64,000 nt of DNA. Source: Candidatus Veblenbacteria bacterium. Lineage in GTDB: Bacteria > Patescibacteriota > Patescibacteriia > Veblenbacterales > UBA10138. Of this stretch, positions 1-23,135 are shown in pieces. Where the stretch lies: contig JAUYKG010000016.1 of assembly GCA_030700105.1 (NCBI GenBank), positions 2,863 to 66,862 of the forward strand, written 5' to 3'. Both the position numbers and the translations under genes were made by a program. A model generated the notes under the pieces. That model was given only the letters and a program-made list of their open reading frames with translations, searched no databases and had not been told where the DNA came from. Within the stretch, counting starts at the first letter, position 1. The number at the start of each line of letters is the position of its first letter.

Positions 1-3000
1 CAGCCGAGACAAGTTCAGTGGTGCCAGAAGAAGCATCAGCCGATAGTCCGGCCGGAGCAGACCTGCCAGCAGTTCAAGAATCGGAGCTGCCGCTGTTCCA
101 CCTGCGCTTAGCGCTTGGTGGCACCGAATGGCAGCCCTTAGTGGATGTGCCGGTGAGCGTGGGTGCCGAATTACCCGGTGAAGTAGTTTTGCCTTTGTCG
201 GTGCTGGATAATTTGGAGGCTGTGCAGATTGCGCTGGTGGCCCCCAGGCGCGAAGAGGCGTCCATGTATGTGTATTTGGACGCACTGGCTATCGAGGTGG
301 ACTACAAAACAGATTTGTTTACTCCTTTACGGCAACTGGTCCAGCAAAACGATGCCGTGGCCACGGAGTCGTTGGAAATGCCGGCTAATCTGGTGTTTAA
401 TGTGGCAACCACTGATTTTGCCGCTGACGAGGATGTGGTTTTTGATTTGGATTATACGGTGGAACTTATGGGCTTGGGGTACGTGAGGGAGCGTAGTGCT
501 TCAGCTGAAAGCGATAACCTTGTCCCGGATTTTACGATTATTGAGGAAGAGACCACGCCAGCAACGGAGAAAGAGCAGTCTGCCGATATCGTGCCTGAAC
601 CAGGCGAGCAAACATCAAGCGAGACATCTACGAGCGAGGAGTCTACTATTCCCGAGCCCAGTGAGGCATCATCCAGCCCGGAATCTTCAGCCCCGACAGA
701 AACGCCAATCCAAATAGAGCCGCCGGTGCCAGAGGTAGTGCCTGCTCAGACGTCTGAAACTCCGCCCGCCACCATTGAACCACCAGTCCAAGAAGAGGTG
801 CCAATTTCAGTAGGCTCTAAGCCGTGGCGGTCGTTGGTCTTAATCGCTCCAGCGGCGGCGGCCGACACTAAGATTGATATCGTTTCCGCCCAGGTTACAT
901 ACCAGGGCGCGCAGCAGCCGGATCTGGTGCCGGTAATGGAAGAAGTGGGAGCGAGCCAGCGTCTAAAGCTTCCGCGCCCCAGTAACTCGTTCCGTCCCGG
1001 CGCGTACCACCTGGTCGTGGAGCTGACGGATGGGCAAACAACAGTGCAGGTGAGCCAGGATTTTACCTGGGGAGTTTTAGCTATTAACACGAATAAGTCG
1101 GTGTACCAGCCGGGTGAGACCGCGTATTTACAAATGGCGGCGTTGGATGATGCCGGACATACTTTGTGCGAGGCTAATTTACAGATCGCCATTACCTCGC
1201 CCGCAGGGGAACAAGTTACGCTACTAGTAAGCGACGGTAGCATTAGTTTAAGTCCTACCTGCGGCCCGGACAATGTAACAGATGAGCCGGATTACTTTGC
1301 TCGCTACCCGTTGGCTGAGGCGGGTACCTACCGCCTTACGCTTACCAACCTGGACACTGGGCACGGGATAACAGGCGAGGTGGAGGTATGGCAGAGCGTA
1401 CCCTATGTAGTGGAACGCGTAGGGGCTACGCGTATAAACCCTTTTAAGAGCAAGTACCGCATGACGCTTCTAGTAACCGCGCTAGACGGATTTAACGGAG
1501 AACTGCGTGAGGTGGTGCCGGAGGGTTTTGAGGTGGAAGCAGAGACTGGCGGCGAGGTGCGGGCCGGCGAGCAGGGCAGCGTGGTGGCGTGGCGTTTGGA
1601 GCTTGAGCCGGGTGAGAATGCTCAGGTGGCGTATGTATACCAAGCACCCGAGGAGTCTCCACAATTTTACCTTTTGGGCCCGGCTGAGCTGGGCGAACCA
1701 TCATTCCCCCTGGGGCAGTTCTTTGGAGTGTTTGGTGATGTGGTGTTTAATGAAACGCGGCAGTGGCAACTGGCCTCTGATGCCGCTTGGTACTCCGCCA
1801 GTTGGTCCTACCGGGTCAAAGTAACTGTGCAAAATGCCGAGGTGGATGCTGACCTGACGAATTTTCCTGTTTATGTGAACTTGGCGAACTTGCCTGCAGG
1901 ATTTCATACCAACGTCAACCAGACTGATGCCCGGGACATCAGGGTGACAAAATCCGACGGTACTACCGAGCTGGCCCGTGAAGTGGTGTTTTATACCGCC
2001 GCATCTGATACAGGCGAGCTTCATTTCCTGGCTAATTCTTTAGCTAATGCTTCTGATACAGATTTCTATATCTATTATGGAAATGCGGGAGCTTCAGATT
2101 ATGGAGTAACTGATACCTATGGCAGGAATGCCGTATGGGCGGGATATGTGGGAGTTTTTCATTTTAACGAATCATCTGGCGGAGCGGGAGCAATCATAGA
2201 TTCCAGTGGTACAGGGAATGATGCGACTGATACAAATAGTCCGACGTTCGCACAAGCGGGTCAATTAGGAAAATCTATTTATTTCAATGGTGGTACAACA
2301 TTTCCATATATCCGAATAGGAAGCACAAGTCTTTCTTTAACAGATTTCACCATATCTTCTTGGATGAAGTTGATGACTGGCACCACAGAGAATAACGAGA
2401 TGCTTGATTATATAGCTGGAACTGCACCTGACCGTATTCTTATCCGTCCAATAGCAGAATATTTAAAAGTCAACGGAACAACAAAACAAGGAGTCGTAAC
2501 CGCAGACAATAGAGATGCGTGGCATTATTTTGCTTTAACGAAAAACAATTCAACCCCCCTCGCAGAGTATTTCAGGGATGCAATATCAGTAACGACTTTT
2601 GCTTTTACTGCGGGAGCTTCAGATTATGCAGCAACATACGCTGGGGCAAGGTCGTACCACTCTATTTTTTATGAAGATGAGCTTCGTATTAGAACAACGG
2701 TATCGTCAGACGAATGGCTCGCCGCTGAATATTCAAACCAAAACACGCCCACAACATTTTATGCGGTGGGGGCGGAGGAGACCCCCCTCCGCGTCCAAGG
2801 CGTGGTCTATATGGCCAATGAGAGCACCTTGGGTACTTCAGGCAATAGCGGCCCTTGTGATGGCAGTACCGCGGTCATCTCCATACGCATCAATGGGGGT
2901 ACCGCAGCCACGGGCTCGTGTAACGCTACCACGGCAGCCTTTGACATTACCGCTGTTTCAGCCGCCGCTTCCGGCGACACCATCACCGTCTACCTCACCT

Positions 3001-6000
3001 CCACCATGAAAGCCAACACGGTCTATGTCTCGGACGGCAACGCTGATACGGGCATAGACCTGTACGAGAACACGCTCGTGGTGGGGCACGTGAACGCTGG
3101 CCCTGCTACCATTCTCGACCTCCTTGACTACGACAGTACGACCAATAACACTGATATGCTGTTTGACGCCGTGGACGCCACCCCCGACACCTTAACTGTG
3201 GAAGACGGGGTAGAGCTCCACGTACGCACCGCAGAAACCCTGACCCCTGGGGGCACCGTCACCACCTCGTCCTCCTCAAATGGTGCTGATACCAATAAAG
3301 ACGGGGATATCCACATAGATGGCACGGGTACCCTTAGTATGGGTACTAACACCCTCTCGGTCGGTGGGGACTTTAACAATGAAGGCACTTTTTCTAAATC
3401 AACCGGCCAAACCACCACCTTCACCGCTGCCGCCACTGGCCACACTATTACGGACGGGGGAGAGAACTTTGACTCCGTCGCCTTTAACGGTTCGGGCGGT
3501 CCCTGGTACTCCTCCTCCTGGCCCTATCGCGTTAAGGTAACCATTCAAAACACCGAGGTTGACGCTGATCTAACGAGCTTCCCGGTCTACGTCAACCTAG
3601 CCAATTTACCAGCTGGTTTCCACACCAACGTCAACCAAACAGACGCGCGGGACATCAGGGTCACCAAAGCCGACGGCACCACGGAACTGGCCCGAGAAGT
3701 CATGTTCTATACCGCCGCTTCGGACACGGGAGAACTACACTTTCTCGCCGACGCTCTTTCCAATGCCTCTGATACCGATTTCTATATCTACTATGGCAAT
3801 GCGGCTGCGTCTGACTATGCCGTTACGGATACCTATGGCAGAAATGCGGTGTGGGGAGATTACGAAGGTGTTTGGCATTTGAACGAAGCAAGTTCAACCA
3901 GAGTAGATTCCAGCGGGAACGGGAATGATATGACCGATAACAATACCGTTTTATCAGCCGCTGGAAAGCTGGCTGGAAACGGAGCAGATTTTGAAACTTC
4001 CGTCCCAGAATATCTTTCCCGAACCGATGCTAATTTGAGCGCAGGATTTCCTGGTAAAAACGGTACTACACCAGCGGCACTCACTGTTTCTTGGTGGTTC
4101 AAACTGGAATCTTTCGTTACGACAAATGTGATGAATATGATTGCCAAGAATGCCACTACGGAAAATCCATATTTTGGGTATGTATATCCTACAGCTGGGA
4201 ATGATTTTCGGGCACAATTAAGTACTACCATTGCCTCGGCTGCCGATTCTGTGACTTCGGCTGGTGTATGGTATAGAGGAGCTTTGGTATGGGATGGAGC
4301 AGATGCTCAAACTTATATAGACGGCGTGGCAAGCGGTTCATCTGTTTCGGTTTCGTCTGTTCCAACAAATACAGGAAGCCTTTGGTTTGGAACAAGAGGA
4401 AGCTTAGGCACAACCCGTTCTATGGATGGCGTCATTGATGAGATTCGTATCCAAGTCATTGACCGCTCTGCCGACTGGGAAGCCGCCGAATACAGCAACC
4501 AGAGTGCCTCAGCCACGTTTTACAGCGTAGGGGAACAGGAAGGGGCCTGGTATAATGCCAGTTGGGATTATCGGGTAAAAGTAACCATTCAAAATGGTGA
4601 GGTGGACGCCGATCTCACCAGCTTCCCGGTTTACGTCAACCTAGCCAATTTACCAGCTGGTTTCCACACCAACGTCAACCAAACAGACGCGCGGGACATC
4701 GGGGTCACCAAAGCCGACGGCACCACGGAACTGGCCCGTGAAGTCGTGTTCTATACCGCCGCCTCTGATACGGGTGAGCTCCACTTCCTGGCTGACTCCC
4801 TGTCTAATACTGTTGATACTGATTTCTACATCTATTACGGCAACGCCGCTGCCTCTGACTATGCCGTTACCGATACCTATGGCAGAAATGCGGTGTGGGC
4901 AAATCATCTTGCAGTTTATCACTTGGCTGATACCCCAACGGGAAGCGCGGGAGACATAACCGACTCATCGGGGAATGGGAAGCATATGACCTCTGTCAAT
5001 ATGGACAGTGGGAATGTGGTGGCTGGGGCTTGGGGCACTGCTTTGGCCTTTAACGGTACAGACGAGTATGCGCTTATTGCAGAGGCACTTAACGCCACAC
5101 TTCCCGCATCGGTCACTGCAATTGTTAAGCCAACGGATGTTGGGGCAGCAACGGAACGATACTTTTTCTCAACTGCGAAGTCAACCGATGACCTTAACGA
5201 ACAAGTTGCAGGTATAAGGAATACCGATACATATATAACACTCACAAGAGGAGGAGCCCCCAGTGCAGTTGCGGAATCAACGATAGATATGACAGACGAC
5301 GCATATGCTCACGTGGCAAGCGTTTGGACTTCAGCAACGAGCAGAGCGGCATATCTTGATGGTGCAAATAAGGGGACAAACACCACATCAAAAACCGCTG
5401 CTGGGCTTGATAGGAGTGCGATTGGCGTTCGTGCGCGGTCTTCACTTGGAGCATATTGGGAGGGAGAGATTGATGAAATTCGTCTTTACGACGGAACATT
5501 GTCTGACCAATGGATAGCTGCCGAGGCCAGCAACCAGAACACGCCTACTACTTTCTACAGTGTGGGGTCAGTCGATGGTTCTAGCGGTGGCTGGTCCTTT
5601 GCTGACAGCACCACTATAGACGTGGACCTTACCCTGACCGCCGGTACCCTCTCCGGCACCCAAGACCTCACCGTGAACGGAGGAGACGTTACTGGCGACG
5701 GGGACATTAACCTTACTGGTGGTACCTTCCTCTTAGATGGAGCCTCTACCACTGGTTTTGGTGGCGCTACCGCCTGGGACTTTAACAACCTTACCCTGGG
5801 GGATGGTACGGGTACTACGACCACGACCGCAATAGGAGCGGGCGGTGTGACGGTGGCTGCTACGCTCACTATTGCTGCTAACCAAACGCTTGATATGAAC
5901 ACGAACGATCCGCCTCTGGATGTGAATGGTGCTGTTTCCATTAGTGGTACTCTCACTGCTTCGCAAACCGCCGTTTTCTCCGTGGCAGGGGACTTTACCA

Positions 6001-6854
6001 ACAACGGCACCTTCAATAACTCCTCGGGCACCGTTACCTTTGACGGTGCTGGCACCAGTACATTCAACGGTTCCAGCGCTCCGGCCATTACTTTCCACCA
6101 CTTCACCTCCACGACGGCTGGCAAGGTCCTTTCCTTTACCGAGGCCAAAACATTCCGTATTAACGGTGTTCTTACCATCCGCGGCTCCAGCGGCAACCAA
6201 ATTACCATTCGTTCCACTTCAGCCTCCAACCAGTGGCTCATTAACCACCAAGGTACGGAGAGCGTTCAGTACGCAGCCATTTATGATTCAGGGTGCGATG
6301 GCTCAAGTACCTACATTTCTCTGGACAACACCTCCAGTGACGGCGACGGTAACAACGGTACCTGCTGGCTGTTCCCCAGTTTGTCCTTCACCCTCAGCTC
6401 CACTTCAGCCAGCTTAGATTTGAACAGTGCTAATACCTTTACCACCACTGCCTCCACCACGCTCACGGTTACGGCCCGCTCGGCCTTTGGCTACCAGGGT
6501 TACGCTAAACAAACGGATAACCTGAGGCATACCGCCGACGCAGGTATCACCATAGCCGATTGGACCGGCACCAATGCTTCTCCCACGGTATTTAACGAGA
6601 CGTGCATAGCCAACGGTGCTAAGTGCGGGTGGGGGTACAACACGAACGATGCTGGCCTTACCCAGTTCGTGGATTCAACGTACTATGCCGGTTTTGTGCA
6701 GAGCACTACGGGCCCGGGCGATATCGTAGCCACGGCTTCGGGCCCAGTATCGTCCGACGCGACTATTATCACCTATCGTGCCAGCGTGGCTATGACGCAG
6801 GCCGCCGGGCCGTACCAAACAACGGTGGTTTATATAGTTACACCGCAATTCTAG
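1..6854 (+). CDS. Giant secreted/surface protein, 5'-truncated (>2278 aa here). It has three DUF2341-like + LamG-like modules, beta-helix-like G/T-rich repeats, and a conserved C-terminal domain shared with the 8477..9751 product.
   Basis: The ORF at 18..6854 has a reading frame that stays open to the window edge, so the true start is probably upstream. A ~120-aa module appears three times: 'SWxYRVKVT(I/V)QNxEVDADLTxFPVYVNLANLPAGFHTNVNQTDARDI(R/G)VTKxDGTTELAREVxFYTAASDTGELHFL...DTDFYIYYGNA'. Each copy is followed by a LamG/ConA-like segment ending 'DEIRI/ELRI...W(L/I)AAEYSNQ'. The C-terminus 'YRASVAMTQAAGPYQTTVVYIVTPQF' matches the C-terminus of the 424-aa neighbour. Confidence 0.8.
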   Translation, partial: AETSSVVPEEASADSPAGADLPAVQESELPLFHLRLALGGTEWQPLVDVPVSVGAELPGEVVLPLSVLDNLEAVQIALVAPRREEASMYVYLDALAIEVDYKTDLFTPLRQLVQQNDAVATESLEMPANLVFNVATTDFAADEDVVFDLDYTVELMGLGYVRERSASAESDNLVPDFTIIEEETTPATEKEQSADIVPEPGEQTSSETSTSEESTIPEPSEASSSPESSAPTETPIQIEPPVPEVVPAQTSETPPATIEPPVQEEVPISVGSKPWRSLVLIAPAAAADTKIDIVSAQVTYQGAQQPDLVPVMEEVGASQRLKLPRPSNSFRPGAYHLVVELTDGQTTVQVSQDFTWGVLAINTNKSVYQPGETAYLQMAALDDAGHTLCEANLQIAITSPAGEQVTLLVSDGSISLSPTCGPDNVTDEPDYFARYPLAEAGTYRLTLTNLDTGHGITGEVEVWQSVPYVVERVGATRINPFKSKYRMTLLVTALDGFNGELREVVPEGFEVEAETGGEVRAGEQGSVVAWRLELEPGENAQVAYVYQAPEESPQFYLLGPAELGEPSFPLGQFFGVFGDVVFNETRQWQLASDAAWYSASWSYRVKVTVQNAEVDADLTNFPVYVNLANLPAGFHTNVNQTDARDIRVTKSDGTTELAREVVFYTAASDTGELHFLANSLANASDTDFYIYYGNAGASDYGVTDTYGRNAVWAGYVGVFHFNESSGGAGAIIDSSGTGNDATDTNSPTFAQAGQLGKSIYFNGGTTFPYIRIGSTSLSLTDFTISSWMKLMTGTTENNEMLDYIAGTAPDRILIRPIAEYLKVNGTTKQGVVTADNRDAWHYFALTKNNSTPLAEYFRDAISVTTFAFTAGASDYAATYAGARSYHSIFYEDELRIRTTVSSDEWLAAEYSNQNTPTTFYAVGAEETPLRVQGVVYMANESTLGTSGNSGPCDGSTAVISIRINGGTAATGSCNATTAAFDITAVSAAASGDTITVYLTSTMKANTVYVSDGNADTGIDLYENTLVVGHVNAGPATILDLLDYDSTTNNTDMLFDAVDATPDTLTVEDGVELHVRTAETLTPGGTVTTSSSSNGADTNKDGDIHIDGTGTLSMGTNTLSVGGDFNNEGTFSKSTGQTTTFTAAATGHTITDGGENFDSVAFNGSGGPWYSSSWPYRVKVTIQNTEVDADLTSFPVYVNLANLPAGFHTNVNQTDARDIRVTKADGTTELAREVMFYTAASDTGELHFLADALSNASDTDFYIYYGNAAASDYAVTDTYGRNAVWGDYEGVWHLNEASSTRVDSSGNGNDMTDNNTVLSAAGKLAGNGADFETSVPEYLSRTDANLSAGFPGKNGTTPAALTVSWWFKLESFVTTNVMNMIAKNATTENPYFGYVYPTAGNDFRAQLSTTIASAADSVTSAGVWYRGALVWDGADAQTYIDGVASGSSVSVSSVPTNTGSLWFGTRGSLGTTRSMDGVIDEIRIQVIDRSADWEAAEYSNQSASATFYSVGEQEGAWYNASWDYRVKVTIQNGEVDADLTSFPVYVNLANLPAGFHTNVNQTDARDIGVTKADGTTELAREVVFYTAASDTGELHFLADSLSNTVDTDFYIYYGNAAASDYAVTDTYGRNAVWANHLAVYHLADTPTGSAGDITDSSGNGKHMTSVNMDSGNVVAGAWGTALAFNGTDEYALIAEALNATLPASVTAIVKPTDVGAATERYFFSTAKSTDDLNEQVAGIRNTDTYITLTRGGAPSAVAESTIDMTDDAYAHVASVWTSATSRAAYLDGANKGTNTTSKTAAGLDRSAIGVRARSSLGAYWEGEIDEIRLYDGTLSDQWIAAEASNQNTPTTFYSVGSVDGSSGGWSFADSTTIDVDLTLTAGTLSGTQDLTVNGGDVTGDGDINLTGGTFLLDGASTTGFGGATAWDFNNLTLGDGTGTTTTTAIGAGGVTVAATLTIAANQTLDMNTNDPPLDVNGAVSISGTLTASQTAVFSVAGDFTNNGTFNNSSGTVTFDGAGTSTFNGSSAPAITFHHFTSTTAGKVLSFTEAKTFRINGVLTIRGSSGNQITIRSTSASNQWLINHQGTESVQYAAIYDSGCDGSSTYISLDNTSSDGDGNNGTCWLFPSLSFTLSSTSASLDLNSANTFTTTASTTLTVTARSAFGYQGYAKQTDNLRHTADAGITIADWTGTNASPTVFNETCIANGAKCGWGYNTNDAGLTQFVDSTYYAGFVQSTTGPGDIVATASGPVSSDATIITYRASVAMTQAAGPYQTTVVYIVTPQF
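1790..2150 (+). repeat. Intragenic module repeat copy 1 (DUF2341-like), the most diverged copy.
   Basis: A DNA/protein repeat of the module also found at 3500..3880 and 4550..4925. Confidence 0.7.
3500..3880 (+). repeat. Intragenic module repeat copy 2.
   Basis: Positions 3591..3694 match 4635..4738 over 104 nt with one mismatch. Confidence 0.8.
4550..4925 (+). repeat. Intragenic module repeat copy 3.
   Basis: Near-identical to copy 2 over long stretches. Confidence 0.8.
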
Positions 6855-6860
6855 GAAAAG

Positions 6861-6910
6861 CAGTATAAAAACAGTATACAGTATTAAGTATTCAGTATTT
6901 AGTATTTGGT
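6861..6910 (+). repeat. Tandem short repeats of (C)AGTAT(T/A) immediately upstream of the four-helix-bundle gene.
   Basis: cAGTATaaaaacAGTATacAGTATtaAGTATtcAGTATttAGTATttgGTATg: seven units. Confidence 0.6.
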
Positions 6911-7285
6911 ATGGAGAATCCTAAAATTCATTCGTTCAAGGATTTAGTTGTGTGGCAAAAGGCGATTGAACTCGCAGTTATTGTGTACCAACTAACCCAG
7001 AAGTTCCCTAATCAGGAAACATACGGGTTGGTTTCCCAGCTCCGTCGTGCCGCGGTATCGGTTTCTTCCAATATCGCCGAAGGGTTTACCCGTAGCTCTC
7101 GTCGAGAGAAGGTGCAGTTCTATGCCATAGCGCGCGGATCGCTGGCAGAAGTAGAAAGTCAGCTTGAGTTAGCGAGGCGAGTTGGCTATGTGCCTAATAA
7201 CGATTATCATGCGTGCGGTGCTCAACTTGAGGACGTTCGTAGGTTATTGGGTAAGTTCGTTTCAGCAGCAACCGATAAGCCATGA
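6911..7285 (+). CDS. Four-helix-bundle protein (23S rRNA intervening-sequence protein family, TIGR02436-like).
   Basis: 124 aa with the family hallmarks 'FKDLVVWQKAIELAV...YQLTQKFP..E.YGLVSQLRRAAVSVSSNIAEG' and 'FYAIARGSLAEVESQL'. The ATGA overlap with the next gene suggests co-translation. Confidence 0.75.
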   Translation: MENPKIHSFKDLVVWQKAIELAVIVYQLTQKFPNQETYGLVSQLRRAAVSVSSNIAEGFTRSSRREKVQFYAIARGSLAEVESQLELARRVGYVPNNDYHACGAQLEDVRRLLGKFVSAATDKP

Positions 7286-8460
7286 AAAGAAATCTTATAC
7301 TTCTGGCCGTCGTGCTGAGTACTGTATACGGTATACTGTATACTTCTTCGGCAGCTGCTGCCGAAGTTGGTTTCAGTGTGTCCGAGAGTTTGTTTGACAT
7401 CTCCTTGCCGCCCGGGGCCGAACAAGAGGTGCAGTTGGTGGTGTTCAACCAGTCCAACGCCGAGCCATTGCCCGTGCACCTGGAGCTTACCTTGTGGGGC
7501 TTGAACGATGATACCGACAGCATAGAGTTTACGACCGCCGATGAAGCGCTTAATGCCGCGCGCTGGTTTGAGCTTGCGGGTACGCCGGATTTTATTCTAC
7601 AGCCTACGGGAGAGCATGAGGTCGTGTGGAACATCAGCGTACCACCCGAAGCTCCAGCTGGTTCGTACTTGGTAATGGCGCGATTCATACCGGCACTGCC
7701 GGAGCATTACTTTAGCGAAGCGGGTCCGCGTTCCGTACCCGAACTCGGCGTGTTGTTCTTTATTAAGGTGGTGCCTTTGGGTTTTGAGATGGCTGATTCG
7801 TACCGGGCGAGTATAACTTCGTTCCAGCCACAAGGCAGAGGCTGGAAGTTCATACCCGGGGCTGAGGCCGCCGCCAAGGCGGGGCAAGCCGGCGTGTACG
7901 GCAGCCTAGCCAGTGCTTTTCAAGCTCTGGTGAAGAATGAAGGTTTGTACTTTTTCAAAGCGCAAGGGACCGTTGAGGTCAGAGGCTGGTGGGGGAGGCA
8001 GGTGGCGCACTTCGTCTTACCTGAGAAATACCTATTACCGGGTAACACCCGGCAGCTGACAGCACAAAGTGAAACCGAATCCTGGTTCAAGCGTCGGTTG
8101 CATTTCGGGCTGTATCATGCTCAGCTGGCCTTGGCGGTGCCGAACCACGACTTGCCGGTAGTCTCCGAGGTATCATTTTGGGTGATTCCCTGGGACTTTA
8201 TCCTGGCCCTACTAGCTGTAGCTGGTGCGATAATAGCCAGCCGGAGGCGGGTGTGGGCTGCGGCTAGGGCTTTGGCTATCCCTCAGGCTATCTCCCCTAT
8301 TGACCATTCTGACAGTTATGGTATAATTAACCCGTCTTTACCAAGCCCTCCCAAGGCGCGTTCTTGGCCAGGCACTGCCTCGGTCAAGAAAAAGCCCAAG
8401 AGGACGCCACGACGCTTGAGCGAAAAGGCACGCTCTCGCCGCCGTTTAATCCAAGATTAA
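7282..8460 (+). CDS. Exported protein with a cleavable signal peptide, a beta-sandwich ectodomain, and a C-terminal TM anchor plus basic tail (DUF916/DUF3324, CscA-like architecture). It is a paralog of the 9832..10788 product.
   Basis: Signal peptide 'MKRNLILLAVVLSTVYGILYTSSAAAAE'. C-terminal 'FWVIPWDFILALLAVAGAIIASRRR' followed by a K/R/S/P-rich tail. Segments align block by block with the 318-aa paralog (PGAEQEVQLVVFN ~ PGETVENVVRVYN; WFELAGTPDFILQP ~ WVSVEPTDFVLP). Confidence 0.6.
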   Translation: MKRNLILLAVVLSTVYGILYTSSAAAAEVGFSVSESLFDISLPPGAEQEVQLVVFNQSNAEPLPVHLELTLWGLNDDTDSIEFTTADEALNAARWFELAGTPDFILQPTGEHEVVWNISVPPEAPAGSYLVMARFIPALPEHYFSEAGPRSVPELGVLFFIKVVPLGFEMADSYRASITSFQPQGRGWKFIPGAEAAAKAGQAGVYGSLASAFQALVKNEGLYFFKAQGTVEVRGWWGRQVAHFVLPEKYLLPGNTRQLTAQSETESWFKRRLHFGLYHAQLALAVPNHDLPVVSEVSFWVIPWDFILALLAVAGAIIASRRRVWAAARALAIPQAISPIDHSDSYGIINPSLPSPPKARSWPGTASVKKKPKRTPRRLSEKARSRRRLIQD

Positions 8461-8476
8461 TTAAACAAACACGCCT

Positions 8477-9751
8477 ATGCAGTACCTCTATCGTTTCTTA
8501 CGTAAGCCCAACGCCAAGCCGAGCGTGATGGGTCTTGTTTTTGTAACCGTATTGGCGCTTTCCGGGCTGTATGCTTTGGGGGTGCCTCAGCGCACCAATG
8601 CTGCCGCTTTAACAAGCGTAAAGGCTACCCTGAGCGATTCCCGTCCTGGCAACGATGCCAACTGGACCATCCAGTTTGTTATGCCAACCCTCATCAATGA
8701 GAACGACACGATCGTGTTGGGCATTGACACCATAGCCACCGCGGACGAGTTTAACCTCGCCGATATTGCCGAAGCCGCCGGTGCTTCTGACTTTGATTTA
8801 GCGGAGGATACCGACGGCAGCCCGGGTAGCTGCAGTGGCACGCTAACGGACGAAACGTTGGATGCGTCAGCTGGTGCCGCCGCCTGGGGCGTGGGCGTGA
8901 ACACCACTACGGATACCATTACCTTTACCGCGCCTTCTGGCGTCGCCACCTATATTGCCGCCAGCGCTTGCGTGGTCATTGAAATTGGCACCAACGCGAC
9001 CAATGAATTCACGGGCGTGAACCAGATAAACAACCCCTCCAAAACAGCTGCCGCCGGCACGGCCGATGTTAACGACGTGGCTATTAGTTTTACCGGTAAC
9101 GCGGCGGCTGATAGCGGCACGGCCCTGGTTGCTACCGTGGAAGGCGTAACCGTGTCTGTTACGATCGACGAATCACTCTCCGTGGTACTGGCCGAAGTAG
9201 CGGCCGCAAGTTGTCCTAGTACTCTTCCTGGAACTGACAAGTCGGATGAGGCTGGCCACACAGACACAGCCATTGATTTCGGTACATTAACGAGCGGTGA
9301 CGCGTTCTACAACAGCTGTCACCAGCTTACCATTGGCACGAACGCTACCGACGGCTATAGCACGACCGTGTACAAGACCCAGTTGTTAACCGCTGGCTCA
9401 GATACTATTGCCGAGGGCGATTGCAACGCCGGTAGCTGCACCACCACGGGTTCTGGCCTGTGGACCACCACCACCGAGAACGGCTTCGGGTACTGTATGG
9501 ACGACGTAACCGGTGATGCGGCCGTCACGGCTGATGGCTCCGGCTGGACCACTGCTGAACAGTGCGACGACGCTACGCCGGAGTTCAAGCTCTTTGGCAC
9601 AGCCACCGGTAACTCACAAGCCATTATGTCCAGTGCCGCACCGGTATCAGGCGATAACAGCATTATCGCGGCCGTGCTTAACTACTCAGCGAGCCAAGCG
9701 GCCGGTACATACACCACCACGCTGGTATTCGTTACTACGCCCACCTTCTAA
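8477..9751 (+). CDS. Secreted protein (424 aa) whose C-terminal ~170-aa domain is homologous to the giant protein's C-terminus. It is a possible cell-wall-binding, WxL-like module.
   Basis: N-terminal signal/TM segment 'VMGLVFVTVLALSGLYALG'. It is G/T/A/S/D-rich and carries Cys pairs (CPST...C, CNAGSC). The C-terminus 'LNYSASQAAGTYTTTLVFVTTPTF' aligns with the giant protein's 'ITYRASVAMTQAAGPYQTTVVYIVTPQF'. Confidence 0.55.
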   Translation: MQYLYRFLRKPNAKPSVMGLVFVTVLALSGLYALGVPQRTNAAALTSVKATLSDSRPGNDANWTIQFVMPTLINENDTIVLGIDTIATADEFNLADIAEAAGASDFDLAEDTDGSPGSCSGTLTDETLDASAGAAAWGVGVNTTTDTITFTAPSGVATYIAASACVVIEIGTNATNEFTGVNQINNPSKTAAAGTADVNDVAISFTGNAAADSGTALVATVEGVTVSVTIDESLSVVLAEVAAASCPSTLPGTDKSDEAGHTDTAIDFGTLTSGDAFYNSCHQLTIGTNATDGYSTTVYKTQLLTAGSDTIAEGDCNAGSCTTTGSGLWTTTTENGFGYCMDDVTGDAAVTADGSGWTTAEQCDDATPEFKLFGTATGNSQAIMSSAAPVSGDNSIIAAVLNYSASQAAGTYTTTLVFVTTPTF

Positions 9752-9831
9752 ACCCACGAACATCTGGCAGAGAGTTTTCCAGATTCCGCTTTGTACTTGA
9801 TGACGATACGGACAGCTGATAAATTTAATCC

Positions 9832-10788
9832 ATGAATTCACCTTTTGCGCGGTTGACGGCGGTACGCGCTTCCGGCTTCTCTGTGGTAGGGGCCGCGGTT
9901 CTCCTGGGGCTTTTAGGCTCTGGGGCGCCGCGGTTTGTTTTTGCGCAAGCGGGTAGCGCCATTTCCTTGGCGCCGCTCACCTTCGAACTAACAGCCAATC
10001 CCGGGGAAACCGTGGAGAATGTGGTGCGCGTATACAACAATGGTGACCAGCCGGTGACCGTAGTGATGCAGGTGCAAGACTTTGCCGCGGCTGGTGAGCG
10101 CGGTGAAGTGGTATTGCAGGAAGCTGACAATCATACGTTCTCTCTGGCTAGTTGGGTGAGCGTGGAGCCCACCGATTTCGTGCTACCGGCTAAGGAATTC
10201 AAACCCGTAACCTTTAAAGTTGCCCTGCCGCCAAACGCCGAGCCGGGCGGACACTATGGTACTGTTCTGGCCTCCGTTACTGGCGTGGCTTCTGGCACGG
10301 GCGCGGCTTTGGCGCAAAAGATAGGCTCACTCATTCTACTGCAAGTGCCTGGTGTGATCAGTGAACAGCTCGCTTTGGCTTCTTTGGAAGCGCCCGGGTT
10401 TTCCGAATATGGCCCGGTGACCTTGACGGCGCGCTTTAAGAATGACGGCTCGGTGCACCTGAAGCCGAGAGGTTTTGTGTTGGTAAAGGGTATGACCGGA
10501 CGCGAGGTGGCACGCTTAGACATACCGCAGCAGAATGTATTGCCGACTTCGGTGCGTAGGATAGATGTTGATTTCCTCGGTAAGTGGCATTGGGGTCGCT
10601 ATACCGCCACCCTAACGGCTATCTATGGCTCGACCAATGAACCGCTGTCTGCTAGTGTGGCATTTTGGATATTTCCCTGGAAGGTGAGTTTGGCAGTACT
10701 CATAGCCGCCTTTATAGTACTGTATGCTCTTTACCGCGGCAGGCGCAGGTTGGCAGCGGCTGGGCGTGTACTGGTTAAGGGGAGCTAA
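9832..10788 (+). CDS. Exported protein with a signal peptide, a beta-sandwich ectodomain and a C-terminal TM anchor (DUF916/DUF3324, CscA-like). It is a paralog of the 7282..8460 product.
   Basis: Signal peptide '...SVVGAAVLLGLLGSGAPRFVFAQA'. It contains 'FELTANPGETVENVVRVYNNGDQPVTVVMQV'. The C-terminus is 'FWIFPWKVSLAVLIAAFIVLYALYRGRRR'. Confidence 0.6.
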   Translation: MNSPFARLTAVRASGFSVVGAAVLLGLLGSGAPRFVFAQAGSAISLAPLTFELTANPGETVENVVRVYNNGDQPVTVVMQVQDFAAAGERGEVVLQEADNHTFSLASWVSVEPTDFVLPAKEFKPVTFKVALPPNAEPGGHYGTVLASVTGVASGTGAALAQKIGSLILLQVPGVISEQLALASLEAPGFSEYGPVTLTARFKNDGSVHLKPRGFVLVKGMTGREVARLDIPQQNVLPTSVRRIDVDFLGKWHWGRYTATLTAIYGSTNEPLSASVAFWIFPWKVSLAVLIAAFIVLYALYRGRRRLAAAGRVLVKGS

Positions 10789-10794
10789 GGCCGA

Positions 10795-10875
10795 GTATGT
10801 AGGTATGTAGTATGTAAGTATGTAGGGGGTACGCTCTTTCCTTACATACCTATATACCTATTACCTATTACCTAT
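10795..10875 (+). repeat. Tandem GTATGTAG-type repeats forming a long imperfect palindrome upstream of the dockerin-protein gene.
   Basis: GTATGTAGGTATGTAGTATGTAAGTATGTAG ... CCTTACATACCTATATACCTATTACCTATTACCT, which is the reverse-complementary arm. Confidence 0.6.
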
Positions 10876-11848
10876 GCTTTGTTCCGCCGGAGAACATTTC
10901 GGTGTGAAGGCCCTCGGTACAGCCGCAGCGGTTATTTTATTGTTGGGGGCTGGTGAGCTCTGGGCGCAAACCTCTAACTGCACCCCCGCAACGTTGCCTT
11001 GTCCGTCCCTTGATAGTACGGTCAGCATTACTATCGGTGGTTCCCCCGGCGGCGGGGGTGGCAGTAGCGGCAACCTACCCCGTGAAGTGACCGATGGTGA
11101 TGTCGTCATCAAGGGCTACAGCGCGCCCGGCAGCATTGTTACCATTCTGCGGGACGGTACGGTGGCGGCCTCGTTTATCACACCGATCGAGGGCAGGTTT
11201 GAGCGTACGCTAACCATCATACCGGCCGGTATTCACACCTTCGCCCTGTTCGCCATTGATCAGGAGGCTCATGCTACGCCCACTGTGGCCCTGTCGGTTT
11301 CCGTGGCCGGCGGCACGGTGACGACCATAGCTGATCTGGTGATGCCGCCCACACTTTGGGCCAACCCAGCGGCCACGACGCAAGGCTCGCCCGTGGCCTT
11401 GAACGGTTTTGCCGCTCCGGGGGCTGAGGTATTTATTGCCCTGCCTTCGGGTTTGCCTGTGTTGAGGGCGACCGCCGCCGGCAGCGGCCGTTTTTCCGCC
11501 TCCTTTGACACATCTGTTTTGTCTCTTGGTGTATATGTGGTACGCGGGTATGCTCGTTTGAGCGGCGGGCTGTTGAGCGAGTTTAGTTCACCTGTGCGCG
11601 TAGTGGTCCTTCCTGCCGGGACACCGCCCGAGGTAATACCCACAGAACCTTCCCTACCGCCAGGCGAAGAAGAGGAGGTGCGTACCTGTGCGCGCGGCGA
11701 CCTTAGTAACGACAGTCACGTGAACCTCACCGATTTCAGTATTCTGATATACTGGTGGGGGAGCGTGAACCAGTGTGCCGACCAGAATGGCGACGGTAGC
11801 GTGAACTTAACCGACCTCTCCATACTCTTGTACTGGTGGACAGGGTAG
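10874..11848 (+). CDS. Secreted Ig-like protein ending in two dockerin-like Ca-binding repeats. The start may instead be the GTG at 10904.
   Basis: Signal peptide 'KALGTAAAVILLLGAGELWAQ' and a Gly-rich linker 'GGSPGGGGGSSGN'. The C-terminus has tandem ~24-aa repeats 'GDLSNDSHVNLTDFSILIYWW' and 'ADQNGDGSVNLTDLSILLYWW', matching the dockerin pattern D-x-N/D-x-D-G-x-VN-x-xD-x-x-x-L. Confidence 0.6.
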   Translation: MLCSAGEHFGVKALGTAAAVILLLGAGELWAQTSNCTPATLPCPSLDSTVSITIGGSPGGGGGSSGNLPREVTDGDVVIKGYSAPGSIVTILRDGTVAASFITPIEGRFERTLTIIPAGIHTFALFAIDQEAHATPTVALSVSVAGGTVTTIADLVMPPTLWANPAATTQGSPVALNGFAAPGAEVFIALPSGLPVLRATAAGSGRFSASFDTSVLSLGVYVVRGYARLSGGLLSEFSSPVRVVVLPAGTPPEVIPTEPSLPPGEEEEVRTCARGDLSNDSHVNLTDFSILIYWWGSVNQCADQNGDGSVNLTDLSILLYWWTG

Positions 11849-11854
11849 GGGAGT

Positions 11855-11889
11855 GAGTATTAAGAATTCAGTATACAGTATTCAGTATG
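11855..11889 (+). repeat. Tandem AGTAT repeats upstream of the first cohesin-like gene.
   Basis: gAGTATtaagaattcAGTATacAGTATtcAGTATg. Confidence 0.55.
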
Positions 11890-13125
11890 ATTAATGCCGT
11901 ACTAAAACATATTCAGAGCGCGTCGCAGCCTTCCGTAGCGGTAAAACATTTTGGCGTAGACGGTAAGGGTTTTCCGCTGTTGATCATACTATATACGTTA
12001 TACTGGATACTGAATACTCCAATTGCTTCTGCCGCCACCATTTCCGTTCTGCCCCAAGGGACCGAAGTAGGCGTGGGGCAGACTTCTCTAGTTGAATTAT
12101 GGCTTGATACTGAAGGGGAGACGGTGAACGCGCTCTCCTTTGTCCTTGCCTTTGATCCGCAGTTCGTGAGTGTGGAAAGTGTTTCCACTGGCGGCAGTGT
12201 CTTTAGCCTTTTCCCTGTACCACCCTTGGTCTTGAACGAGCGCGGTGTGGTGGAGCTGTCTGCCGGTGCGCCCGGCGGGTTCGCGGGACAAGGGCTAGTG
12301 GCCAACATTTTGCTGCGGGGTCTACGGGTTGGCACAGCCGCGCTCAGTATTACTTCCAGCCAGGCGCTTAAGCATAGTCCGACGGCAGAGCCCATCTCCC
12401 TGCGTGTTCTTGGCTCTAGCCTGCAGGTGGCTACGCCGGAGACAGGTGAAATCGTTATAACCTCTAAGGATCATGCCGAGGAAAGTGTGTGGTATAACGT
12501 ACCATTCATCCGTATGTCATGGCCAGTTCGTCCGGGGGCTTCGTATAGCTACGTGCTGTCCCGTTCGCCCAACGAAGAGCCTGATGAAGTACCAGATGAA
12601 CCAACGGGGGAGATTAAGCTGAGTATAAGTGAGGACGGCGTGTTCTACTTTCACCTGCGCGAGTGCCGTGCCGGCACGTGCGGACCCACCGTTACGCGGC
12701 GGGCTATGAAAGATACCACACCGCCCGAACGCCTGGAGCTCGCGGTTGGTGCAGCGTCAGGTGTATTGGAGGGTAAAGTGTTCTTGAGCTTTACCGCCAG
12801 CGACGCGACTTCAGGGGTAGCGCACTACGAAGTCTGGGAAGAGGCAGTAGGTGAAACTTGGGAGAGGGTTATGAGTCCTTACGTGCTACAAGACCAAGCG
12901 CACCAGGGGGTGGTGCGTGTGCGGGCTTATGATACAGCAGGGAACTATCGCGAGGAAATACTTTCTCCTTTGGCTCCAGAGCCTTGGTACAGGTCAGAGG
13001 TGGTGTTTTGGGGTATACTGGTAGTAGGTTTAGCTGCTCTGGGAGTAACAATTTTTGTTAAACGCCGTGGGCAAGCCGGTCCAGCGCCCCAGGCTAACCA
13101 GTCTTCCACGCCTCCTTTGCCATGA
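11887..13125 (+). CDS. Membrane-anchored protein with an N-terminal cohesin-like domain, an FN3/Ig-like domain and a C-terminal TM.
   Basis: N-terminal hydrophobic segment 'FPLLIILYTLYWILNTPIASA'. The cohesin-like region reads 'ISVLPQGTEVGVGQTSLVELWLDTEGETVNALSFVLAFDPQFVSVESVS...VVELSAGAPGGFAGQGLVANILLRGLRVGTAALSI'. C-terminal TM 'VVFWGILVVGLAALGVTIFV'. The region downstream of the cohesin-like block is homologous to the following gene. Confidence 0.55.
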   Translation: MINAVLKHIQSASQPSVAVKHFGVDGKGFPLLIILYTLYWILNTPIASAATISVLPQGTEVGVGQTSLVELWLDTEGETVNALSFVLAFDPQFVSVESVSTGGSVFSLFPVPPLVLNERGVVELSAGAPGGFAGQGLVANILLRGLRVGTAALSITSSQALKHSPTAEPISLRVLGSSLQVATPETGEIVITSKDHAEESVWYNVPFIRMSWPVRPGASYSYVLSRSPNEEPDEVPDEPTGEIKLSISEDGVFYFHLRECRAGTCGPTVTRRAMKDTTPPERLELAVGAASGVLEGKVFLSFTASDATSGVAHYEVWEEAVGETWERVMSPYVLQDQAHQGVVRVRAYDTAGNYREEILSPLAPEPWYRSEVVFWGILVVGLAALGVTIFVKRRGQAGPAPQANQSSTPPLP

Positions 13126-15218
13126 TATCGTTGTCGTCATTTTTTATATCGCCGCTACGTTCGGCTGGTATTACCCCTACCTTGAGGGTAGGGGTGTGCG
13201 TTATCACTTTACTGGCAGTGTGGTTGGGCTGGGTAAGGGGTGCTGAGGCTGCCAGCTTGCACCTCTCGCCGGTAACCGGCAGTTTTGAGGTGGATGCTAC
13301 GTTCGATGTCGGCGTGTATCTAGATACCGAGGGACAGGCGGTGAACGCCGTGGCTGTAAATCTGGCCTTCCCGCCCGATAAGTTACAGCTCGTTTCACCA
13401 GTGGTGGCTGGGCAATCGATTGTGGAGGTGTGGAGTGCTCAGCCGAGGTTTTCTAACCAGGATGGTTTGGTGGAATTGGCCGGTGGTATTCCTGGCGGTA
13501 TCACCACCAGTCGCGGCCTCATTACTACCTTGCATTTCCGGGTGCGCTCCGTGGGCACGGCCTTAGTGAGGTACCAGGATTCCTCGCAGGTGCTCTTACA
13601 TGACGGCAAGGGAACCAACGCGCTCTACGATACATCGAGCGGAATTTTTGAACTTACCTTGCCAGCACCGGCCGGTCCCGAGGTGGTATCTGTTACGCAT
13701 CCTGACCAAGCCAAATGGTACCCAAGCTCCAACGTGAGTTTGGGCTGGGAAGGGGAAGCTGAGGTAGAGGGGTATAGCTACCTGTTGTCTGATAAACCTA
13801 TTGACCTGGTGGACGACATAGCAGAGGGCAAGCAGGTGTCGGTGGTGTACGAGAACGTGGCCGATGGTGTGCACTATTTCCACATTAAGAGCCTGCGCAA
13901 AGGCAAGTGGGGCGGGGTTACCCACCGCGCTATTAAGGTAGACAGCACTCCGCCGGCTGATTTTCCCATAGACATCGTGCCGGCAGCGCGCACTATTAGG
14001 CGCCAGCCTATCATTCAGTTTAGTACCACGGATTCCGGTTCCGGCCTTTCTCACTACGAGGTGAAGCTCGTACTCTTGCACTCCAATGAGGCGCAAGCGG
14101 CCGAGAATAGCTCTTTTGAATCGATTTTCGTGGAAACGCAGAGCCCATACCTGCCGCCCGAACTTAAACTGGGGAAATACGACGTTATTATACGGGCTTA
14201 CGATCAGGCTGGCAGTTTTCGTGAGGTAACACAGCGTTTAAGCATCGTGAAGGCAATTTTTACCGTGGTGGGGGAGCGGGGGCTGGATGTGCGCAACGCT
14301 TTTGTTATCCCCTGGGTGTGGGTGTGGGTAATCGGTCTGGTTTTGGTGGCGGGGGTTGCTTACCTCGCTTGGTGGGTACGGCGTTGGCATTACCGCGTTG
14401 AACAGCGCAAGCTTCATGAGGAGCTGCCTAACACCTTGCAAACGCAACTACAAGAACTGCGTGAGTACCGCAAGAAGTATGGACGACTAGCAGGCCTGGT
14501 GTTGGCTCTGCTGGCGGTCTCTTGGTTGTGGTTGGGCGCTCTGCCGGTGCAAGCTCAGGAGACACCGTTAGCACCGCCCTACATTACTACTGTGTCGCGG
14601 GATATTTCCAACGAGGACATTTTTTACCTTGGTGGTCGGACTGAGTCTGTCAATACCGAGGTTGTTATCTACCTCCAGCACCCTGCTAGCGGGCGCACGG
14701 AAGGGTTCAGTGTTACTTCTGATAAGCGCGGCGAGTGGTTTTATCGGCACCACACTTTCCTACCCAGCGGTCGGTACGTACTGTGGTCGCAGGCTCGCGT
14801 AGGCGAGCAGCTTAGCCCGCCTGGGCCGCAGGTTGAGCTTATGGTGCACAATACGGCCGTACAGTTCGGTTCATCCCGTTTATCTTACGAGGTTATCTAC
14901 TTGGGCATTATTATCCTCTTGGCCGCTCTGTTCCTGGGCCTGGTGGCGTACACGGCTTTCCACTTCGTTCATGGCCGCCGTAAGCACGCAGCGCTCATAA
15001 AAGAGATACGCGAGGCCGAGGAATCGGTGCGTCGCGGTTTCGCTGTACTGAAGCGCGATATCCAGGCCGAGCTTAATGTGGTGAGGAAGGCGAAACTATC
15101 CAAACAACTTTCCGCCGAAGAGCACGCTCGTGAGGCCGAACTTATGAAAGATTTGGACTGGGTGGAAAAGTATATCGGCAAAGAGGTGTGGGATGTGGAG
15201 CAAGCGGAACAGTCATAA
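13122..15218 (+). CDS. Polytopic membrane protein (698 aa) with an N-terminal cohesin-like domain, FN3/Ig-like domains, three TM segments and a C-terminal charged coiled-coil tail.
   Basis: ATGA overlap with the upstream gene. Cohesin-like block 'LHLSPVTGSFEVDATFDVGVYLDTEGQAVNAVAVNLAFPPDKLQLVSPVVAGQSIVEVW...LVELAGGIPGGITTSRGLITTLHFRVRSVGTALV'. TM segments 'VIPWVWVWVIGLVLVAGVAYLAWWV', 'LAGLVLALLAVSWLWLGAL' and 'GIIILLAALFLGLVAYTAF'. A C-terminal 'EIREAEESVRR...' helix follows. Confidence 0.55.
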   Translation: MISLSSFFISPLRSAGITPTLRVGVCVITLLAVWLGWVRGAEAASLHLSPVTGSFEVDATFDVGVYLDTEGQAVNAVAVNLAFPPDKLQLVSPVVAGQSIVEVWSAQPRFSNQDGLVELAGGIPGGITTSRGLITTLHFRVRSVGTALVRYQDSSQVLLHDGKGTNALYDTSSGIFELTLPAPAGPEVVSVTHPDQAKWYPSSNVSLGWEGEAEVEGYSYLLSDKPIDLVDDIAEGKQVSVVYENVADGVHYFHIKSLRKGKWGGVTHRAIKVDSTPPADFPIDIVPAARTIRRQPIIQFSTTDSGSGLSHYEVKLVLLHSNEAQAAENSSFESIFVETQSPYLPPELKLGKYDVIIRAYDQAGSFREVTQRLSIVKAIFTVVGERGLDVRNAFVIPWVWVWVIGLVLVAGVAYLAWWVRRWHYRVEQRKLHEELPNTLQTQLQELREYRKKYGRLAGLVLALLAVSWLWLGALPVQAQETPLAPPYITTVSRDISNEDIFYLGGRTESVNTEVVIYLQHPASGRTEGFSVTSDKRGEWFYRHHTFLPSGRYVLWSQARVGEQLSPPGPQVELMVHNTAVQFGSSRLSYEVIYLGIIILLAALFLGLVAYTAFHFVHGRRKHAALIKEIREAEESVRRGFAVLKRDIQAELNVVRKAKLSKQLSAEEHAREAELMKDLDWVEKYIGKEVWDVEQAEQS

Positions 15219-15395
15219 GGTAGTTATCCGTGACAAGATGTATGATTGTGCGTAGATTGGTTAAGGGTGTAAACCGCGAGACCCCGCACCGTGCCTCGGC
15301 TCTGGTGCGTGGGTGGAGCAAGCCGAGAGGCAAACCGAGTAAGTGTCGAGTGCGGGTTATTTTTGGCTAAGGTAAAACAAATTTTTTTTAGGCCA

Positions 15396-15424
15396 TTGAC
15401 GCGTAATCATCTGCGGGGTATAAT
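15396..15424 (+). promoter_or_regulatory. Consensus sigma70-type promoter of the ATP synthase operon.
   Basis: -35 TTGACG at 15396..15401, an exact 17-nt spacer, and -10 TATAAT at 15419..15424. It lies ~20 nt upstream of the atpZ-like start. Confidence 0.6.
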
Positions 15425-15443
15425 TTTTACCCGAAGTTTTACT

Positions 15444-15737
15444 ATGTCCAACCCTGAACAATCTAACGAGGAACAAAACCAGAGCACCGTGTTCAAGGCT
15501 TTGGGGCTGGCTTGGGAGCTCGGCTACACCATCGCCGTACCGTTGGTAGTACTGGCGCTGGCTGGTCGTTTGGTTGATCGCTGGCTCGGTACTTCCCCTT
15601 GGTTTTTGTTGGTGGGTGTATTACTGTCGATCGTGATTTCCACCTGGACCGTTTATCGTAAGACCAAGCTTATTATATCTGCGCCTGCGGCAGGGTCTGG
15701 TGCGAATACGGCTGAGCAAAAGAAGACCGTCTTATGA
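15444..15737 (+). CDS. atpZ: AtpZ/AtpI-like small membrane protein preceding atpB.
   Basis: 98 aa counted from the internal ATG 'MSNPEQS'; the longer ORF start at 15291 would overlap the promoter. Two TM segments 'YTIAVPLVVLALAGRLV' and 'WFLLVGVLLSIVISTW'. It sits immediately upstream of atpB. Confidence 0.5.
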   Translation: MSNPEQSNEEQNQSTVFKALGLAWELGYTIAVPLVVLALAGRLVDRWLGTSPWFLLVGVLLSIVISTWTVYRKTKLIISAPAAGSGANTAEQKKTVL

Positions 15738-23053: not shown

Positions 23054-23135
23054 CGCGGTGAAACAGGTGTGGGTCTACCTAAGTATGGTAGGCCCCTTTT
23101 TGTTATGCCCAAACCCAGCGTGGTACACTACTAAT

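Follow-up and report, generated by a model that had tools for sequence, protein, structure and literature searches.

Attachment to other microbes is the presumed way of life of bacteria of the candidate phyla radiation (CPR, or Patescibacteria), and the giant surface proteins of these bacteria are foremost candidates for mediating it. The diversification of these proteins is poorly known. Here we analyze a giant surface-protein gene of Candidatus Veblenbacteria bacterium, located at one end of a 64,000-nucleotide (nt) stretch of DNA (contig JAUYKG010000016.1, positions 2,863 to 66,862 of the forward strand; hereafter, the window), and in particular a module of 118 codons that is present in three copies in this gene, each copy heading a unit that consists of the module and a LamG lectin-like domain.

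The two principles that are relevant for the comparison of this locus with described systems, namely, conversion between intragenic repeats and the attachment of a swappable binding domain to a conserved handle, are both well known. In the streptococcal alpha C/Rib proteins, the staphylococcal SasG/Aap proteins and Bap-type adhesins, the repeats within the gene undergo concerted evolution and vary in copy number. The Veblenbacteria gene resembles these repeat adhesins in that it encodes a large surface protein with an in-frame repeated module, evidence of inter-repeat recombination and possible in-frame deletion of a unit, but differs in that its repeats are not arranged in tandem and have diverged in DNA sequence, with synonymous sites saturated save for two short patches, and alternate with highly divergent domains that are not homogenized. 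Phage tail fibres, the CdiA proteins of contact-dependent inhibition, and Rhs proteins combine an N-terminal part that is conserved with a C-terminal part, for receptor binding or toxicity, that can be exchanged. This arrangement is matched by relatives of the window gene, in which identity collapses near the 3' edge of the module and a LamG core of about 600 nt is replaced, and some of which adjoin tail-fibre and virion genes; the unit in the window, in contrast, occurs three times in the interior of a cellular giant protein rather than at its end.

The module matches the profile of DUF2341 (PF10102; MJ1470 family). Archaeal DUF2341 proteins have been proposed to function as type IV pilus-tip adhesins (PMC4858521), a DUF2341 protein is needed for transformation in Methanococcus maripaludis (PMC10133366), and DUF2341 domains are frequent in giant proteins of Patescibacteria (PMC11809585), which the Veblenbacteria protein resembles in both the combination with LamG and the giant size. 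The differences are the borderline scores of the individual modules and the genomic context: the archaeal loci include type IV pilus genes, whereas none were seen adjoining the giant gene in a scan of the neighbouring open reading frames (ORFs). LamG/concanavalin proteins have been proposed as CPR attachment factors and are also encoded by CPR phages (PMC11310336). The likeness to LamG/Laminin_G_3 lectins extends to units 2 and 3, which score above the Pfam cut-off, and to the AlphaFold2 (AF2) model of unit 3, a lectin-like jelly roll; the core of unit 1 differs in lacking Pfam recognition. In the literature searched, we found no description of module-anchored LamG turnover, with troughs of G+C content at third codon positions (GC3), in CPR giant proteins and phage-like contigs.

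We consider it likely that the gene contains three ancient copies of the module, that gene conversion between copies 2 and 3 occurred later, and that the module is the scaffold of a variable LamG domain. Under this reading, the 118-residue module would be the constant scaffold and the LamG core the variable, predicted ligand-binding part, with the units inserted into the framework of a giant protein that is predicted to be anchored in the membrane at its N-terminus and exposed on the surface. Copies 2 and 3 would have exchanged short tracts recently, on top of old, saturated divergence. In relatives, the 3' edge of the module appears to be a recurrent breakpoint, at which cores would be replaced and whole units gained or lost, so that the module may also act, in effect, as a homology arm. 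The locus, so read, alternates a conserved scaffold module with fast-turnover lectin-like cores and bears traces of intragenic recombination. Its parts, all on the + strand, are as follows:

1..6854, +, giant surface-protein gene; 5' end cut by the window edge, ORF listed as 18-6854
1785..2138, +, module copy 1, DUF2341-like beta-sandwich plus linker, 118 codons, 'AWYSASWSYRVKVT...TDTYGRNAVW'
2139..2786, +, variable core of unit 1, LamG-like by alignment to units 2 and 3; GC3 0.34
2787..3500, +, inter-unit framework segment, Pfam-negative; GC3 0.66; common to homologs without units
3501..3854, +, module copy 2, DUF2341-like beta-sandwich plus linker
3588..3694, +, putative conversion tract A in copy 2, partner 4632-4738 in copy 3; 106/107 nt identical
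3803..3854, +, putative conversion tract B in copy 2, partner 4847-4898 in copy 3; 49/52 nt identical
3855..4544, +, LamG core of unit 2, Laminin_G_3 at 52.6 bits; GC3 0.38
4545..4898, +, module copy 3, containing the partner tracts 4632-4738 and 4847-4898
4899..5603, +, LamG core of unit 3 and unit end, Laminin_G_3 at 59.8 bits; GC3 0.43, with a trough at about 5100-5400
5604..6854, +, C-terminal framework of 26-28-residue repeats; 66% identity to P0002 (a homolog, see below); Pfam-negative

The repeat search covered the entire window. A three-copy family of direct repeats, at 1786-2085, 3502-3801 and 4546-4845, is the sole repeat of at least 40 nt in the 64 kb. The copies lie 1716 and 1044 nt apart, start to start, both multiples of three and hence in frame, and codon alignment delimits a module of 354 nt (1785-2138, 3501-3854 and 4545-4898). 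A preliminary description of this DNA, made from the sequence alone, reported three copies of a DUF2341-like module of about 360 bp, and this is what we find. Copies 2 and 3 are 85.3% identical at the nucleotide level, with 10 amino acid differences in 118 positions, compared to 75.7% for copies 1 and 2 and 76.8% for copies 1 and 3, each with 13 differences; copy 1 is, as previously noted, the more diverged one. Most of the mismatches are in third codon positions. Copies 2 and 3 share maximal exact matches of 69, 37, 28, 17 and 16 nt, the 37-nt block lying within a 107-nt tract and the 28-nt block at the 3' end of the module; the additional identical blocks of about 45 nt mentioned in the preliminary description are not there. 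Between copy 1 and the other two copies, the longest exact run is 14 nt, at about 24% divergence. The edges of the module are sharp, with 16 of the 60 nt upstream and 25 of the 60 nt downstream identical between copies 2 and 3. With the Pfam gathering cut-off for DUF2341 at 23.4 bits, the whole protein passes at 47.7 bits; in scans of single units at E <= 0.01, unit 1 passes (24.1 bits), unit 2 fails (21.5 bits) and unit 3 yields no match, and the alignments to single units span only profile positions 1-59 of 84. Given these borderline scores, we refer to the module as DUF2341-like.

A separate short repeat was observed at the end of module 1. A 27-nt patch at 2084-2110, which encodes 'AGASDYGVT' in the module-1 linker, recurs 525 nt downstream at 2609-2635, where it encodes 'AGASDYAAT' in the LamG region of unit 1 (93% identical, 20 nt exact). 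This patch is too long for chance and may be a micro-conversion or the vestige of a lost module.

Identical codons were counted among those encoding the same amino acid, and compared with the expectation for independent synonymous draws from the codon usage of the window. Copies 1 and 2 share 40/101 such codons and copies 1 and 3 share 47/101, against 40.5 +- 4.6 expected; because codon identity is at the random expectation, the nucleotide sequence of copy 1 has kept no trace of its relation to copies 2 and 3. Between copy 1 and copies 2 and 3, the LWL85 method yields a synonymous divergence (dS) of 1.9-2.3, that is, saturation, and a nonsynonymous divergence (dN) of about 0.06, with dN/dS of about 0.03. 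By segment, all three pairs are at the expectation (z 0 to 1.8), with the exception of two patches shared by copies 2 and 3, outside of which this pair has 28 identical codons among 56, against 22.9 +- 3.4 expected. We show by these comparisons that the three modules are old copies, the 89-92% amino acid identity of which is held by strong purifying selection; as judged from the codons, purifying selection on the putative scaffold domain, not recent duplication, is the dominant reason for the repeat. The notion of near-identical long repeats therefore holds for the two patches of copies 2 and 3, but not for the three copies as a set, which are saturated elsewhere. Active avoidance of identity by codon scrambling was considered and rejected, given that the observed codon identity matches, rather than falls short of, the random expectation. 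The identity among the window copies compares with 83-88% amino acid identity to the best external modules; at the DNA level, copy 1 is 76% identical to its sibling copies and 75.8% identical to a Wolfebacteria module. Recent exchange with any sampled locus was likewise rejected, the best nucleotide identity of 70-76% being the saturated floor.

The two patches stand out sharply from this background. Tract A contains the 69-nt and 37-nt perfect blocks, and 34 of its 35 same-amino-acid codons are identical, against 13.0 +- 2.8 expected (z 7.6). The 104-nt stretch with a single mismatch that had been pointed out before (3591..3694 vs 4635..4738) is exact as described, and the tract extends to 3588-3694. 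In tract B, which stops exactly at the 3' edge of the module, 15/17 codons are identical, against 6.7 +- 1.9 expected (z 4.4). Copy 1 is at the random expectation over the codons of tract A, and because it is randomized at the same codons, protein constraint does not explain the patches. In a Sawyer-type permutation of the 105 polymorphic sites, the concordant run of copies 2 and 3 is significant (p = 3e-4 with no mismatch, p = 1e-4 with one mismatch allowed); the same test gave no signal for copy 1. Chance does not explain the two patches (107 nt and 52 nt). The tracts display high identity between repeats, diverged borders and similarity beyond protein constraint, as expected of gene conversion, and we infer that copies 2 and 3 recently underwent short-tract non-reciprocal recombination, by gene conversion or template switching. 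No conversion tracts were found in the conserved C-terminal motif of LamG.

The product of ORF 18-6854 corresponds, with 100% identity, to residues 290-2567 of MDP3986035.1 (P0001), a protein of 2567 amino acids encoded on an 81-kb contig of a metagenome-assembled genome (MAG) and annotated as 'LamG-like jellyroll fold domain-containing protein [Candidatus Veblenbacteria bacterium]'; bases 1-17 of the window, upstream of the ORF, contain no in-frame stop, and residue n in the window is residue n+289 of P0001. Outside of the window, P0001 begins with a treble-clef zinc finger (PF23477), and the hydrophobic stretch after it, read by eye, is a putative transmembrane segment. With the zinc finger and this segment at the N-terminus, the rest of the protein is probably extracellular and surface-exposed, in agreement with the earlier designation of the gene as one for a giant surface protein.

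The LamG cores contrast with the modules in conservation. The three cores are only about 30% identical to one another at the amino acid level, with indels between units 2 and 3, although the units can be aligned and include the conserved C-terminal motif 'DELRI...W.AAEYSNQ..TFY.VG'. At a Pfam cut-off of 27.6 bits for Laminin_G_3 (PF13385), two of the three units, 2 and 3, belong to this family, whereas the core of unit 1 has no Laminin_G_3 match at E <= 0.01. No core has a relative with more than 40% identity, and for the core of unit 2, the best relative anywhere is at most 33% identical. The AF2 model of unit 3 has a predicted template modelling score (pTM) of 0.80, with the local confidence score (pLDDT) below 50 for the central LamG residues 180-243; Foldseek matched this model to the trans-sialidase lectin domain, domain 4 of the GH43 enzyme AbnA and clostridial neurotoxin Hc (E about 1e-7).

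The framework around the units is shared with three homologs, P0002, P0003 and P0005, over the N-terminal region and residues 1213-1452 of P0001 (about 61-72% identity), and the C-terminal end of the framework is common to P0002 (66%) and P0005 only. The high-scoring segment pairs (HSPs) with these homologs end at P0001 residues 878, 1213, 1452 and about 2135, which are unit edges, and no match to the module was found in P0002, P0003 or P0005. Because the alignments stop at the unit edges and the homologs lack units, the units behave as inserted cassettes.

The base composition of the gene is a mosaic. GC3 is 0.58-0.66 in the framework segments and 0.60-0.63 in modules 2 and 3, compared to 0.34, 0.38 and 0.43 in LamG cores 1, 2 and 3; in module 1, it is 0.47, with windows over the 3' half at about 0.26-0.30. 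The 22 other genes of the window have a mean GC3 of 0.62 +- 0.045 and a minimum of 0.49. Troughs of 0.22-0.38 at about 1968-2640, 3900-4360 and 5100-5400 coincide with the LamG cores. Taken together, the cores have a GC3 of 0.38 vs 0.61 in the rest of the gene (Fisher p = 2.6e-22), and at four-fold degenerate sites, the values are 0.36 vs 0.64 (p = 3e-20). Two other CPR arrays display the same contrast: GC3 is 0.56-0.70 in the modules and 0.22-0.46 in the cores across all nine units of L009, and 0.69-0.81 and 0.35-0.48, respectively, across all five units of L028. Low-GC genomes, such as L019, L005, L008 and L078, lack the contrast, and in phage-like single-unit genes, GC3 is low throughout. 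The low GC3 of the cores fits import from a low-GC pool.

Relatives of the module were found in CPR lineages, other bacterial MAGs, one archaeal MAG, many metagenome contigs, and 55 viral contigs from IMG/VR. Arrays of 2-9 modules per ORF are common and occur in many lineages, and many single-unit proteins, of about 355-380 amino acids, begin with 'MAWYNASW...'. The usual pattern within a protein is 55-86% identity among modules and 22-35% among the downstream LamG domains. Long exact matches in the module region were detected in L012 (128 nt), L022 (46 nt) and L028 (45 nt), whereas the orthologous pair L008/L014 has kept positional orthology without homogenization, so that both modes occur. 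For L012 modules 1 and 2, L028, L095 and L009, the ungapped codon comparison was uninformative, probably because of indels. The closest module, in L034, is 84% identical at the amino acid level; its neighbours include TatC, Fic, GAF, a Cas4-like protein and weak tail-fibre matches, and this locus is not clearly phage; the setting of L070 is likewise ambiguous. L089, in which a single-unit gene follows virion-structural and tail-fibre genes, is clearly phage-like.

Replacement of the core between conserved flanks is observed among relatives. In seven pairs of contigs from different metagenomes (L057/L058, L071/L072, L104/L103, L089/L098, L049/L050, L090/L098 and L095/L094), nucleotide identity stays at 90-100% up to the module and across it, and is lost beyond the 3' end of the module. 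Counted from the module start, the loss falls at about +355 to +410 in six pairs and later in L049/L050. In L057/L058, L071/L072, L104/L103 and L089/L098, identity resumes at about +960 to +1000, that is, about 600 nt later, so that in these four pairs, the LamG core is replaced between matching flanks. Several contigs of the collapsing pairs are also in IMG/VR. Whole units appear to be gained or lost as well, in phage-like contigs that are only distantly related to the window gene: L078 (5382-7493) encodes two units in 701 amino acids, and L089 (9986-11059) encodes one in 355, next to a 6.4-kb flank that is 99.7% identical, and the one-unit difference joins exactly at the unit boundary, '...FYSAGAQE'. 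A conserved handle with a swappable cassette is thus seen in relatives, but not in the window gene, where what points, indirectly, to exchange is composition (the GC3 troughs), the lack of close LamG relatives and the ends of the HSPs.

Two further observations on relatives were made. In P0115 and P0117, which are read-derived fragments (SRR3989344 and SRR3989338), the first 92 or so module residues are identical and are followed by different linkers and LamG starts. In L009 (Paceibacterota, JBBDRP010000002.1), two adjacent giant ORFs, 2-5686 with three modules and 6665-16372 with six, have a module spacing of about 351 amino acids, and the most similar pair of modules (85% amino acid identity) spans both genes (module 5 of ORF B and module 2 of ORF A), which suggests possible exchange between neighbouring paralogs.

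In the collections searched, we found no close ortholog, strain variant or second copy of the giant gene. Among species-representative genomes, the best relative of the module is 79% identical at the amino acid level (Wolfebacteria), and no Veblenbacteria ortholog was found; an exact-protein look-up of P0001 for strain variants returned no record, the exact 69-nt sequence had no match in JGI metagenomes, and a tblastn search with unit 3 had no match in deposited phage genomes.

Several points weigh against the reading of old copies with later conversion between copies 2 and 3. The gene conversion is read from one consensus sequence, and a short-read assembly or binning artefact, such as shared k-mers or a mixed-strain consensus, may in principle create or blur patches. 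The 107-nt patch would have been exchanged between copies with flanking identity runs of at most 16 nt, whereas RecA-type exchange normally requires longer identity; the exchange may thus have involved template switching, or a third donor copy that was not sampled. Cassette exchange is seen in relatives, many of them phage-like, rather than in the window gene, and among the contig pairs there may be chimeras that arose when identical modules were bridged in assembly. The cores might owe their low GC3 to AT-biased mutation or decay in fast-evolving segments, not to transfer, or the contrast might be caused by GC-biased conversion that acts on the modules only. Finally, surface location and ligand binding are predictions.

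A broader version of this reading, which we regard as possible but somewhat doubtful, is that the module is the handle of a LamG cassette-exchange system common to the giant surface proteins of CPR bacteria and to phages or further mobile elements found in the same types of environment, with the cores imported and the patches arising as a by-product. Recombination would be anchored in the module and in the last 25-35 conserved residues of LamG, and import, replacement, duplication and deletion of cores would retarget attachment. The low-GC3 cores of the window gene, L009 and L028 would then be recent imports from a low-GC mobile pool, and this process would have left the conversion patches of copies 2 and 3 as a side effect. 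If such exchange is real, partner or host specificity could be tracked via the LamG cores, exchange between phages and cells could be studied likewise, and the uncharacterized DUF2341 domain would gain a role.

Two features outside of the giant gene bear on the alternative explanations:

23058-26141, AddA-type helicase-nuclease gene
6911-7285, ORF of 124 amino acids directly after an array of heptamers; strong match to 23S_rRNA_IVP (E = 6e-39), weak match to bAvd

The preliminary description regarded the gene as a likely hot spot of RecA-dependent or slipped-strand deletion and duplication, with length or antigenic variants and with copies possibly collapsed or expanded in the assembly. Only copies 2 and 3 could at present mediate homologous deletion or duplication of a unit: their 69-nt perfect match (within 106/107 nt), 1044 nt apart and in frame, exceeds the minimal efficient processing segment for RecA recombination of >40 bp (PMC4824099), and a predicted crossover within it removes exactly one 348-codon unit and leaves the frame open. 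Past exchange between these two copies is evident, an AddA-type helicase-nuclease gene is present in the window, and L089 and L078 are near-identical relatives with one and two units, respectively. Copy 1, however, is not a plausible substrate, because its exact runs with copies 2 and 3 do not exceed 14 nt at 24% divergence and its similarity does not go beyond that imposed by the protein; recombination falls about 45,000-fold at about 21% divergence (PMC4824099). The part of the claim that survives is that copies 2 and 3 have recombined and could do so again, and even for this pair, the usable identity is short and non-tandem, so that rates should be low. Moreover, no variant of the gene was found in the collections searched, and because all three LamG cores differ, loss of a unit would not be neutral length variation. 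An active hot spot in this sense appears unlikely to us. The warning about assembly retains its force, in that unit number and order in such genes need long reads. That the near-identical patches themselves are an artefact of metagenome assembly or of the MAG consensus, through mis-threaded k-mers or strain mixing, is suggested by the origin of the sequence from a MAG contig and by the branching of de Bruijn graph assemblers at repeats with perfect 69-mers, but assemblers normally do not invent identity within copies that are diverged and otherwise resolved, both copies keep an undisturbed reading frame and the conserved protein sequence throughout, and exact matches confined to the module recur in independent, unrelated assemblies (the matches in L012, L022 and L028 described above). 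We consider such an artefact improbable.

Recent tandem duplication of a whole unit, with the patches as a remnant rather than a product of conversion, would account for the adjacency and similar lengths of units 2 and 3 (348 and about 353 codons) and for the greater similarity between copies 2 and 3 than of either to copy 1 (85% vs 76% nucleotide identity). This explanation is already disfavoured and appears highly improbable: the synonymous codons of the two copies are near random outside of the patches, the LamG cores of units 2 and 3 share only about 30% of their residues and differ by indels, and a uniform process of decay is unable to produce saturated flanks beside 107 nt with a single change (p about 1e-4). 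The patches could also have been kept for a nucleotide-level function (RNA structure, an internal promoter or an antisense gene), or reflect variation by a diversity-generating retroelement, at which the ORF with the 23S_rRNA_IVP and weak bAvd-like matches directly 3' of the gene might hint. Copy 1, however, does not keep these nucleotides, and the identical tract has no unusual RNA fold (z 0.32). As for a retroelement, the neighbouring ORFs scanned include no reverse transcriptase domain, the window contains no other repeat of at least 40 nt as a possible template repeat, and the mismatches are mainly in third positions, with no adenine bias (A in 8 and 7 of 52). A nucleotide-level function or retroelement variation is thus scarcely credible, and the gene was rejected as a diversity-generating retroelement target, the Avd-like/23S rRNA IVS-type ORF being the only such element present.

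The rest of the window is ordinary chromosome, with genes for ATP synthase, PheRS, GyrB, DnaE and FtsW in addition to the AddA-type helicase-nuclease. The 57-nt gap on the 3' side of the giant gene (6856-6912) contains about five heptamers of the forms CAGTATT, AAGTATT and TAGTATT; this array might serve as an operator or a promoter, or have another role. Downstream, 7282-15218 comprises six more same-strand ORFs, mostly with no Pfam match. Among these, a WxL-interacting peptidoglycan-binding-like domain, Big_6 plus dockerin, and a weak NPCBM-associated match hint at surface proteins, and the giant gene together with these ORFs may form a cell-surface gene cluster.

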